Origin: Candidatus Electronema aureum
Lineage (GTDB): Bacteria; Desulfobacterota; Desulfobulbia; Desulfobulbales; Desulfobulbaceae
Reading direction: 5' to 3'
NCBI GenBank assembly: GCA_004284765.1
Contig: NQJD01000004.1
Coordinates: forward strand, 90,263 to 122,262
Length of the DNA stretch: 32,000 bases
The notes below the pieces were generated by a model that searched no databases, had not been told where the DNA came from, and saw only the letters and a list, made by a program, of their open reading frames with translations. The position numbers and the translations under genes are program-made. Positions 21,052-22,614 of this stretch are shown here, one piece after another (positions within the stretch are counted from its first letter, which is position 1; each line of letters opens with the position of its first letter).

Positions 21052-22204
21052 TTGCAATGGTCTCCCACATGGATTTGGCATGAACTGTCAGGAGCGCGTG
21101 CATCTGAAAGCGCACCTCGCCATCCTCCTGATACGGCTCCAGCAGTCCGCGCTTCTCCAGCTCGCGGATTGCCGGACGCGGATCATCAACACCCCACGCA
21201 GCTGCTATGGCAGCACGATCAAAGGTTGCCGGTTTCGGCGCAAAGACTCCCAAGAAGGCAAACTGCTTCCGGGTCAGCGCATCAAGACGGTCTGTGCTTT
21301 TCCGTAGCAGTGCAGTCACAGAGGGTGTGGTCTGGCCGGATAAATCAGCGCGATCTGCGGGCGCAGCTTCTTGCAGCAGTCGGGTGCCTTCAGTCAGCTC
21401 GTCCAGCAACTCCCTGACTCCCCAGCCCATAGTTGCTTCGGCAGCAAGCAGGCTACCAGCAACACTTAACGCCAGCGGCATACCGTCTAACTCCTGCACC
21501 AGCTGCCGCACCCCTTGCTCATCCTGCGCCACAGACTCAGGCGAGAGCTGGCGGATCAGCTCGATGGAGTCCTCTTCCGACAGCACCAGCAGGCGGTACA
21601 CCGCCTTGTCCGGCAAGCCGAGCTTCCGGGCCACATCAGGCTCACGGGTGGTGAGCAGCGTTCGGCACGCCCGCCCGCCGACAAGGAAGGGCTGCGCGTC
21701 AGCGGCCTGCCACACGTCATCTATGATCAGCAGCATCCGGCGGTCGCGCAGCAGTCCGGCGAGCCGATTCTGCCGCTCTTCAATGCGCTGATACCGCTGC
21801 GGATCATCACCGAAGGCAAGCAGCCATTGCCCCAGTCCTGCCAAGGGATTGGGCGACATGCCCAAGGCCGTCCACAGCACGCCATCAGGGAACGCCTTCT
21901 TCACTTCGGCATCATGCGCCATAGCTGCCGCCAGCGTGGTCTTGCCAATGCCAGGCCAGCCCCGCACACTGGTGATCAAGGTTGTTGACGGCTCGCCAAA
22001 GAGACGCTGCCGCAGCGCAGCCATGTCGTTGTCACGCCCGATGAACAGGTTGGGTGGGGCTGGCAGTAGACTTGGAGAAGGAAAAAGCACAGGCTGCTTG
22101 CCGTCTGTATATACGTTAATCATTGTGGCATGGTCTTTGACCACGGTTTGACCGCCACTATTGCTGTCGTAGTTATCACCATGCACCTCAGTCTGGTTGC
22201 TCAT
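21044..22204 (-). CDS. NB-ARC (STAND) P-loop ATPase lacking a fused repeat sensor
   Basis: 386 aa. Motifs: Walker A VRGWPGIGKTTLA, Walker B MLLIIDDVW, LLTTR, GLPL-like LDGMPLAL, and MHD-like FQMHALL near the C-terminus. The N-terminal 31 aa resemble the start of the upstream 129-aa protein. GGGGGAAGGA precedes the ATG. Confidence 0.9.
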   Translation of the reverse strand: MSNQTEVHGDNYDSNSGGQTVVKDHATMINVYTDGKQPVLFPSPSLLPAPPNLFIGRDNDMAALRQRLFGEPSTTLITSVRGWPGIGKTTLAAAMAHDAEVKKAFPDGVLWTALGMSPNPLAGLGQWLLAFGDDPQRYQRIEERQNRLAGLLRDRRMLLIIDDVWQAADAQPFLVGGRACRTLLTTREPDVARKLGLPDKAVYRLLVLSEEDSIELIRQLSPESVAQDEQGVRQLVQELDGMPLALSVAGSLLAAEATMGWGVRELLDELTEGTRLLQEAAPADRADLSGQTTPSVTALLRKSTDRLDALTRKQFAFLGVFAPKPATFDRAAIAAAWGVDDPRPAIRELEKRGLLEPYQEDGEVRFQMHALLTVHAKSMWETIANA

Positions 22205-22224
22205 TCCTTCCCCCTGTCATTATC

Positions 22225-22614
22225 TCATGCTGCCCAATTCGTCCATTGCTCACCACACCAGATTAACCCCTGACCGAGCAGATTGCCAACAGCAACCGCC
22301 GCTTTAACAGTCTTTGAGCTTTCCTCCAAGATGGAGACCGCTTCTTTCAGACTGTCTGCTATTCTTTTCCGGTCAGGAGGATTCCTTCTCGCCAGTCTCA
22401 ACGCACCATTAACCTCGTGCTCCACATCCTCCTTGACTTCCTGCGCAACAGGCAGGTTTGAAAGCTCCTGCTTTGCTTTATCCAGAAGGGCAAGCAGCTC
22501 TTCAACCGGTGCCTGCTGGCTTATATTGATCTGCACAGCGTTGTCTTTGGCGATGTACTGCGGCCCGCCGCTACTTTCAAAGCTGTCTCCGTGAATAATC
22601 TTGATGTCACTCAT
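22225..22614 (-). CDS. Small hypothetical protein sharing an N-terminal motif with the NB-ARC ATPase (putative effector/adaptor)
   Basis: 129-aa ORF. AGGGGGAA lies 6 nt before the ATG. It starts 24 nt after the valS stop and ends 20 nt before the NB-ARC start. The middle is helical and charged, and the tail is hydrophobic and Trp-rich (AAVAVGNLLGQGLIWCGEQWTNWAA). I recognise no family. Confidence 0.65.
   Translation of the reverse strand: MSDIKIIHGDSFESSGGPQYIAKDNAVQINISQQAPVEELLALLDKAKQELSNLPVAQEVKEDVEHEVNGALRLARRNPPDRKRIADSLKEAVSILEESSKTVKAAVAVGNLLGQGLIWCGEQWTNWAA

Follow-up and report, generated by a model that had tools for sequence, protein, structure and literature searches.

Two adjacent genes of Candidatus Electronema aureum, a freshwater cable bacterium of the Desulfobulbaceae, encode proteins of 129 and 386 amino acids (aa) that begin with the same short motif; the first is a small protein annotated 'hypothetical protein CDV28_104102', the second an ATPase annotated 'NB-ARC domain-containing protein'. 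They lie in a 32,000-nucleotide (nt) stretch of contig NQJD01000004.1 (GenBank assembly GCA_004284765.1, positions 90,263 to 122,262 of the forward strand), which is referred to here as the window and whose coordinates are used throughout; comparison loci and proteins carry L and P numbers. Both genes are read from the reverse strand, the small-protein gene at 22225..22614 and the NB-ARC gene at 21044..22204, and the 20 nt between them are also typical of related loci. Each product matches E. aureum database entries exactly (TAA75756.1/CAK8721741.1 for the small protein, TAA75755.1/CAK8721736.1 for its neighbor), and the identical 386-aa NB-ARC protein occurs in two E. aureum assemblies. A G5 Shine-Dalgarno sequence stands before each start on the reverse strand, GAAGGGGGAA at 22620..22629 for the small gene and AGGGGGAA at 22208..22215 for the NB-ARC gene, as a preliminary description of this DNA had pointed out.

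The motif reads MSDIKIIHGDSFESSGGPQYIAKDNAVQINI in the small protein (residues 1-31, encoded by 22522..22614) and MSNQTEVHGDNYDSNSGGQTVVKDHATMINV in the NB-ARC protein (residues 1-31, 22112..22204), and the two copies score 68.8 and 65 bits, respectively, against a local hidden Markov model (HMM) of the motif, which finds no further copy in the window. In a single pairwise comparison, BLASTP aligns the two proteins in one ungapped segment, residues 1-31 with residues 1-31, with 13/31 positions identical and 22/31 positive (E=4e-7), bearing out the likeness first reported in the preliminary description. The DNA encoding the two copies is identical at 48/93 nt, conserved residues being specified by different codons, and the similarity has therefore been kept at the protein level rather than arising by recent gene conversion; the DNA upstream of the two genes is similar at the Shine-Dalgarno sequence only. 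In composition the motif is enriched in N (2.66x), Q (2.35x), G (1.98x) and I (1.70x) and depleted in P (0.05x) and L (0.23x), and it agrees with six of the eight features expected of a bacterial amyloid signaling sequence (BASS; Q, N, G, V and I up, K, P and L down). In the AlphaFold2 monomer model of the small protein the motif has no confident structure (predicted local distance difference test [pLDDT] 32-39, no secondary structure). Within residues 2-31 (22522-22611) the motif weakly resembles itself when shifted by 14 residues, K-I-I-x-G-D-N-F aligning with Q-Y-I-A-K-D-N-A; this is the best of all offsets tested, yet low-scoring, and could hint at a two-layer beta-arrangement. A signal peptide, lipoprotein signal or other secretion leader was ruled out, the motif having neither a hydrophobic core nor a lipobox Cys.

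In the NB-ARC protein the motif is followed by a Pro-rich linker (residues 32-57, 22034..22111, reverse strand) that contains PVLFPSPSLLPAPPNL (residues 38-53), and then by the NB-ARC domain itself (Pfam, residues 58-259, E=8e-26), whose P-loop, GWPGIGKTT (residues 82-90, 21935..21961, reverse strand), is invariant in an alignment of relatives. Motif and linker together make up the whole region ahead of the nucleotide-binding domain, as the earlier reading of the sequence had it. Equivalent Pro-rich linkers follow the motif in other proteins of this NLR (nucleotide-binding, leucine-rich-repeat-like receptor) type. The AlphaFold2 model of the NB-ARC protein was of low confidence (pLDDT 53, from a 9-sequence alignment) and was not used. 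With the N-terminal 132 aa as the query, 9 matches revealed that N-termini have been swapped: sister NB-ARCs (P0028, P0030, P0029 and L008 1855-3906) bear other short G/V/Q/N-rich N-termini, such as MDAKNPSIGVGSISNVQGVAIGSGAQVVIQQAPP and MSRFNSKGGEQNIAQGDHSIGQQNN, ahead of the Pro-rich linker. These sequences suggest a wider repertoire of swappable N-terminal motifs, and short N-termini of this sort on the same type of linker are typical of NLRs bearing amyloid signaling motifs. In one relative, P0040, the motif is matched twice, once directly before the NB-ARC domain.

The rest of the small protein is modeled by AlphaFold2, with the family alignment, as a four-helix bundle (residues 37-119, 22258..22506, reverse strand; helices 37-52, 58-75, 82-100 and 104-119), and the model is confident (block pLDDT 88-97 over residues 41-120; predicted template modeling score 0.69). 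Helices 1-3 are amphipathic and charged, and helix 4, KAAVAVGNLLGQGLIW, is the sole hydrophobic helix, hydrophobicity peaking at residues 102-122 (Kyte-Doolittle 1.0-1.34 in 17-residue windows). Helix 4 is Gly-zipper-like, with a G-x3-G-x-G pattern and with the polar residues N111 and Q115 sharing one face. The preliminary description had drawn attention to a hydrophobic, Trp-rich C-terminal tail; that feature is real, but is better drawn as helix 4 of the bundle (residues 104-119) plus the tail CGEQWTNWAA (together 22228..22305, reverse strand), and this is the element we propose to be membrane-active. The family is tiny, comprising 23 clusters of 85-135 aa with full-length members of 129-135 aa, and its named members other than that of E. 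aureum come from Ca. Electrothrix. Its most conserved part is helix 4 with the tail CGEQWTNW: G110, N111, L113, G114, Q115, G116, C120, G121, E122, Q123, W124, T125 and W127 are each at least 90% conserved, and the tail WCGEQWTNW is almost invariant. A tblastn search of plasmids and phages returned chance matches only; one, to a Streptomyces plasmid, was discarded because it runs antisense to one of the genes of a CpaF/TadE cluster of type II/IV secretion type.

All 24 of the 24 family members examined match the PADLOC model PDC-M14B (best E 2.5e-8) in its C-terminal third, at profile positions ~153-259 of 267, the match covering residues ~16-112 of the small protein (22279-22569); the small protein of L015 and the fusion proteins P0038 and P0039, described below, match it also. 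The N-terminal ~150 profile positions have no counterpart in the small protein, and the relation is homology at the level of a domain, not membership. PDC-M14A found no match among the seven neighboring proteins scanned, which included four NB-ARC, TPR and nSTAND1 neighbors, and a literature search found no paper on PDC-M14, an uncharacterized system.

How widely the motif occurs was assessed with a 34-column profile, built from the N-termini of the window and of database sequences and scored against 1.84 billion representative proteins; this exhaustive search replaced a word-indexed search with a 42-aa motif alignment, which had given only 5 candidates. The profile matched 18 proteins at E<=1e-3, and 12 of the 18 matches fall on small-protein, NB-ARC or other conflict-system architectures. 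Relatives of the small protein (P0018, P0034-P0037) and NB-ARC N-termini (P0025, P0040, P0044) are among the matches. Other architectures carry the motif as well. In P0038 and P0039 (L012-L014) the entire module of motif and bundle forms the C-terminus of a pentapeptide-repeat protein, and a third pentapeptide-repeat protein, P0048, ends just past the motif; in P0046 (L023) an EAD8 domain precedes the motif; and in P0049 (L015) the motif is followed by an unknown domain of ~360 aa, the gene being flanked by those of an nSTAND1 NTPase and of a small-protein relative of 122 aa. The bundle module always stands at the extreme C-terminus, the fusions P0038 and P0039 included. The remaining six of the 18 have 5-10 matched stretches each and were treated as compositional false positives; of the three checked against Pfam, two are FG-GAP repeat proteins and one has scattered sub-threshold matches only. 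So restricted a distribution is not that of a common leader found on unrelated proteins, the outcome that the preliminary description had named as speaking against its proposal.

The pairing is constant. Loci of the small-protein family were gathered via contig look-ups and scans of sequence collections, and a motif-bearing partner is encoded directly downstream of the small gene in 17/17 distinct loci with readable downstream DNA. The partner is an NB-ARC or NB-ARC-TPR protein starting with the motif in 11 loci, a 91-92-aa protein starting with the motif in 5 loci, and P0049, followed by nSTAND1, in 1 locus. In L001, L003 and L008, the three of these loci that were examined for it, there is a 4-nt overlap between the 91-92-aa gene and an NB-ARC-TPR gene, and the NB-ARC-TPR protein that follows it has a different N-terminus, MINxSISFGxGxVNIAQGD.... 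The 91-92-aa proteins (L001 8414-8689, L003 8414-8692, L008 6080-6355, and L022 from position 162) consist of the motif (MS.QTEVHGDNF...) and then charged helices, and it is to those of the Electrothrix loci (MSKQTEVHGDNF... in L001, MSDQTEVHGDKF... in L008) that the motif start of the window NB-ARC protein, MS.QTEVHGD, is closest.

One paired locus comes from Ca. Vecturithrix, of the phylum Moduliflexota (L007 2906-13515), where a small protein of 57% identity accompanies a motif-bearing NB-ARC-TPR protein. The pair is situated between ResIII and N6_N4_Mtase genes (res/mod of a type III restriction-modification system), with a DUF4258 gene nearby, and this defense-island context in another phylum implies horizontal transfer of the pair. 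Elsewhere the neighbors of the cassette are valS, hrpA, recC or toxin-antitoxin genes; given its varying genomic position in Desulfobulbaceae and Moduliflexota, the pair behaves as a mobile defense-island cassette. Conservation of the pairing at orthologous loci, a point on which the preliminary description had staked its proposal, thus extends over differing genomic positions and two phyla.

Motif copies from the same locus also resemble each other more than do copies from different loci. Over 11 small-protein/NLR pairs, identity averages 0.561 within loci versus 0.491 between loci (permutation p=8e-4 for identity, p=1e-4 for BLOSUM score). Examples of such co-variation are L015, where both copies are without the first strand, L019, where both read GDNYE..DG.QYN, and L010, where both have ATLY. 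Both genes of the window are under purifying selection: compared with the related strain L028, the small gene has 10 synonymous and 2 non-synonymous codon differences (20 and 8 compared with L025) and the NB-ARC gene has 62 and 33, the corresponding figures for valS against L028 being 70 and 23. The NB-ARC partners lack an effector domain, and their sole constant companion is the small protein; for these reasons we read the motif as a homotypic coupling element, and comparison of the sequences makes it very probable that the NB-ARC protein and the small protein are coupled through it.

The sensor side of the window locus has a more complicated structure. In loci such as L007, L010, L017 and L019, the NB-ARC and the TPRs of the NLR form one protein; the NB-ARC gene of the window has no fused repeats, and TPRs are encoded by separate open reading frames (ORFs) on the same strand. 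The first of these (module 1, 20071..21081, reverse strand, 336 aa; Pfam TPR_12, 2e-45) overlaps the NB-ARC ORF by 38 nt, out of frame with it, and is 64% identical to residues 391-694 of the L010 NLR. The second (module 2, 19012..20001, reverse strand, 329 aa; TPR_12, 5e-46) is a tandem copy of the first, with 58% identity to residues 391-692 of the same NLR; together the two modules form direct repeats with a period of 1071 nt and 72-81% identity (19012-21081). Both cassettes start at one and the same point of homology, which corresponds to residue 391 in intact Electrothrix NLRs. The window NB-ARC is 31% identical to the Electrothrix NLRs versus 58-64% for the TPR modules, and from this contrast we conclude that the sensor gene is chimeric and split. 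Sensor modules may have been shuffled as cassettes, or the chimeric gene may be in decay; in L028 the NB-ARC ORF (390 aa) stops at the same position. A role in the biosynthesis of a ribosomally synthesized and posttranslationally modified peptide was rejected: FxSxx-COOH and HaaT TPR-protein models match the NB-ARC protein far below their cut-offs (80 vs 300 and 52 vs 1125), no maturase gene lies in the vicinity, and the bundle of the small protein is well folded.

On its other side the cassette adjoins valS (22639..25389, reverse strand, 916 aa). The small gene starts 24 nt past the valS stop, with the same spacing in L025 and L028, and neither a promoter-like nor a terminator-like site was found in the interval between the two genes. 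The far end of the cassette (18842..18996) is a 155-nt copy, at 83% identity, of the segment 23677-23831 within valS, and an ORF at 18554..19030 (reverse strand, 158 aa) translates to a valS-like sequence; L028 has a valS 3′ remnant at the equivalent position after its cassette (L028 4284-4391). Because pieces of valS bracket it, the cassette looks inserted at valS, bringing or duplicating part of the gene. The surroundings are otherwise of a housekeeping kind, with thiC, thiE, a prephenate dehydratase (PDT/ACT domains), valS and htpG, and with a flavoprotein of the amine-oxidoreductase family, possibly HemY.

The closest parallel to the pair is found in the bacterial Bell-BASS/NLR pairs (Dyrka et al. 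2020, bioRxiv 10.1101/2020.01.06.895854). As in those systems, a short motif is common to the products of collinear adjacent genes separated by ~20 nt; an NLR of the NB-ARC/TPR type has a short G/N/Q-rich motif, on a linker, as its only N-terminal element (here motif 1-31 at the extreme N-terminus, NB-ARC 58-259); the partner bearing the same motif is a helical bundle of ~130 aa; related NLRs swap motifs; and the hosts are multicellular filamentous prokaryotes. The named host records here, Ca. Electronema aureum, Ca. Electrothrix spp. and Ca. Vecturithrix, are all of filamentous organisms. Vecturithrix is filamentous, and the cable bacteria are described as such in published papers. The differences are no less plain. 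In Bell-BASS pairs the effector carries its motif at the C-terminus and its hydrophobic helix at the N-terminus, whereas here the motif is N-terminal (residues 1-31), the bundle follows it (residues 37-119) and the hydrophobic helix is C-terminal; cable bacteria and Moduliflexota lie outside the lineages reported for BASS pairs; and some loci have the third, 91-92-aa motif protein. No Bell domain was found on the small protein in Pfam, NCBIfam or the PDB, a search with a Bell HMM not being among those made. Neither does the motif belong to the families BASS1-10, whose Table S2 representatives reach no more than 5.3 bits with the motif HMM, compared with 28-70 bits for members, and the 4-mers GDNF, IAKD, NIAQ, AKDQ and SGGG are absent from the supplementary tables examined, including the pair list of Table S2. 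A likeness to BASS5 was considered and set aside, since KIVNYAQGDIN shares 6 residues only with the NIAQGD of some NLR N-termini and the representatives score -1.9 to -0.1 bits where listed. The pair would work like a Bell-BASS/NLR pair, yet it fails two defining features, motif position and domain on the one hand and motif family on the other.

A similar logic operates in HET-S/NWD2 of Podospora anserina (and in HELLP/PNT1 and HELLF/FNT1), where the N-terminal motif of an NLR templates the motif of a neighboring small executioner; in executioners of the HET-S type the helical domain then exposes a hydrophobic helix and attacks the membrane (reviewed in PMC7889193). The window proteins differ from these in having a single N-terminal motif of ~30 residues, in which a 14-residue internal repeat is weakly hinted at, in a bundle unrelated to HET-S by sequence and Foldseek comparison, and in their inverted polarity. 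The HeLo, HELL, MLKL four-helix-bundle and CC domains likewise share with the small protein the presence of a bundle, but in those domains the membrane-inserting element is a hydrophobic helix at the N-terminus, bearing an acidic residue at position 2-3; in the small protein the hydrophobic helix is C-terminal and the motif occupies the N-terminus, and similarity to solved members was detected neither in fold nor in sequence. The third comparison is with Bab/Agp (BASS11), an E. coli pair that acts against phages by abortive infection (Ibarlosa et al. 2024, bioRxiv 10.1101/2024.11.07.622273), in which a small helical executioner and a neighboring sensor also have a short amyloid motif in common and which is also found in a defense-island context. 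The BASS11 motif occurs in addition on TIR, CHAT and EAD7 as well as NACHT and NB-ARC immunity domains (Ibarlosa et al. 2024, 10.1101/2024.11.07.622273); the motif described here is similarly found with EAD8, on pentapeptide-repeat proteins and on a protein encoded beside an nSTAND1 gene. Set against BASS11 by description only, the window pair differs in that the Bab motif is C-terminal and the pore-lining helix N-terminal. In Bell-BASS, HET-S/NWD2 and Bab/Agp alike, then, the effector motif is C-terminal and the membrane helix N-terminal, and published screens compare effector C-termini with NLR N-termini, a design that the field's own review says biases discovery. The preliminary description was right to call the polarity of the E. 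aureum pair, N-terminal in both partners, unusual.

We suggest, at about even confidence, that the pair is a two-component immune or cell-death module of the STAND (signal transduction ATPases with numerous domains)/NLR type, coupled by a homotypic and probably amyloid-like motif, with a polarity inverted relative to Bell-BASS and HET-S. The preliminary description had suggested that the motif serves homotypic recruitment, in the way of HET-S/NWD2, BASS/Bell or effector-associated-domain (EAD) systems, and that the partner might be membrane-active; the recruitment part of this suggestion draws support from the rarity of the motif and from its pairing. In this module the sensor would be the NB-ARC ATPase, which has no effector domain of its own and whose TPR repeats are, in this copy, encoded separately. 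Oligomerization of the NB-ARC protein, driven by a ligand, would gather the N-terminal motifs, which would order themselves into beta-structure, most probably an amyloid-like stack of the cross-beta type; the stack would recruit the motif of the small protein and template it, and the change would be passed to the adjoining bundle, freeing helix 4 and the tail for attack on the membrane, so that the filament cell that is infected or damaged would die. The topology would be the mirror image of that in Bell-BASS and HET-S. A physical interaction, an amyloid fold, membrane activity, cell death and a trigger are what we infer at the successive steps. Amyloid-like templating by the motif, drawn by analogy with these systems, is plausible but falls slightly short of an even chance, and analogy also leads us to consider it an evenly balanced question whether the small protein acts as a membrane-active executioner.

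Several observations weigh against the module as we picture it. In some loci there is a third motif-bearing protein, of 91-92 aa, the role of which, whether adaptor, decoy or regulator, the model leaves unexplained. The co-variation was seen in a sample of 11 partly related loci, and at 42% identity the window pair is the least similar of the 11 (rank 11/11). The motif departs from BASS in V (0.56x) and K (1.12x), so that the V enrichment and K depletion of that type are absent. Helix 4 is of moderate hydrophobicity and is modeled as packed in the bundle, and the bundle has no significant fold match in the PDB or BFVD by Foldseek (best E 0.28 and 0.066), none to HeLo, MLKL, CC or Bell-type domains in those collections, and no sequence match for the small protein in Pfam, NCBIfam, PHROGs or PDB sequences. 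Finally, the frame changes between NB-ARC and TPR in the window and the TPR ORF is further broken in L028; for this reason the sensor copy in the window may be in decay, or its parts may function as separate polypeptides.

The main rival is an adaptor that is not amyloid. Under this explanation the motif folds only on contact, into a small and defined beta-structure, and docks stoichiometrically on the copy displayed by the oligomerized NB-ARC protein, much as the partners of death-fold or EAD pairs do, with no prion-like templating, and the small protein is still the effector. It follows the logic of the EADs (EAD1-11 and bDLD; Kaur et al. 2020, PMC7159879), which are found as copies on a core NTPase and on the adjacent effector, are predicted to be homotypic coupling adaptors, and are more alike when adjacent. 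The layout fits this principle, with one copy on the core NTPase, one on the adjacent effector, and adjacent copies more alike over the 11 pairs, though not for the window pair itself; the motif is joined to EAD8 in P0046; K and D/E are frequent in it and V is not enriched; and a finite beta-assembly would fit the present data as a cross-beta stack does. However, the described EADs are small, globular and mostly alpha-helical, whereas the motif is a stretch of some 30 residues without confident structure in the monomer (pLDDT<50), and the Pfam EAD families match neither window protein. The motif is, moreover, G/N/Q-rich and P/L-poor in the manner of amyloid signaling motifs, and it stands on a Pro-rich linker at the N-terminus of an NLR, as the BASS and HRAM motifs do. 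On balance we think it unlikely, if worth serious attention, that such an adaptor is the better account.

It is less probable still, and in our view quite improbable, that the small protein, binding the N-terminal motif of the NB-ARC protein through its own copy, is a regulator (a cap, chaperone, inhibitor or threshold-setter) or an adaptor to an unlinked effector, the 91-92-aa proteins being further regulators. That no enzymatic or known pore-forming domain was detected in the small protein would suit this explanation, as would the moderate hydrophobicity of helix 4 and the presence in some loci of two different motif-bearing small proteins, which suggests regulatory layering. It leaves the NB-ARC(-TPR) partners without an effector, even though the small protein is their one constant companion, and it does not sit well with conservation that peaks in the C-terminal helix and tail, not in the motif, with a module kept at the extreme C-terminus even in fusions, or with homology to part of a candidate defense protein, PDC-M14B. 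An absence of any functional coupling seems to us extremely improbable. The two N-termini would then be a relic of a 5′-end duplication or gene conversion that took in the initiation region and the first codons, or else a compositional coincidence, and one can cite the similar G5 Shine-Dalgarno sequences and MS- starts of the two genes, the shortness and biased composition of the motif, and the six profile matches of 18 that are repeat-rich or multiply matched, two of them with confirmed FG-GAP repeats. Against this, the different codons at conserved residues and an upstream likeness that stops at the Shine-Dalgarno sequence largely exclude a 5′-end duplication; the pairing persists in both phyla, with motifs that are 40-65% identical and that co-vary; the motif occurs on unrelated architectures too; and selection on both genes is purifying.

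Returning to the amyloid-coupled module, we would go further only tentatively. The E. aureum pair may represent a mirror-image class of amyloid-controlled executioner, in which a prion-like templating motif is N-terminal and a free C-terminus is required by the membrane-inserting Gly-zipper helix and its Trp tail, and which is portable across STAND sensors, has spread horizontally among filamentous bacteria of more than one phylum, and serves the altruistic death of single cells in cable filaments. As part of the same tentative reading, the module would plug into NB-ARC-TPR and nSTAND1 systems and into pentapeptide-repeat proteins. Existing screens would have missed such a class, because they compare effector C-termini alone with NLR N-termini.

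Signaling between an NLR and an executioner through an amyloid or homotypic motif is one of the few mechanisms common to the cell-death pathways of fungi, animals and bacteria, and the described cases and published screens all assume that the motif of the effector is at its C-terminus. If the interpretation offered here is true, a conserved pair with both motifs N-terminal and with a new bundle domain would mean that the principle is independent of C-terminal topology, that systems of this kind have not all been catalogued, and that templating could act on the downstream domain starting from the other chain end. The family also provides a first functional lead for the uncharacterized PADLOC candidate PDC-M14B. 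For the cable bacteria, which form centimeter-long conductive filaments, the pair places an NLR-type death or defense module in the organism. Single-cell death ("ghost cells") is on record for these bacteria but has no genetic explanation so far; if the mirror-image reading is true, the module would be a possible genetic route to the ghost cells of the cable filament.

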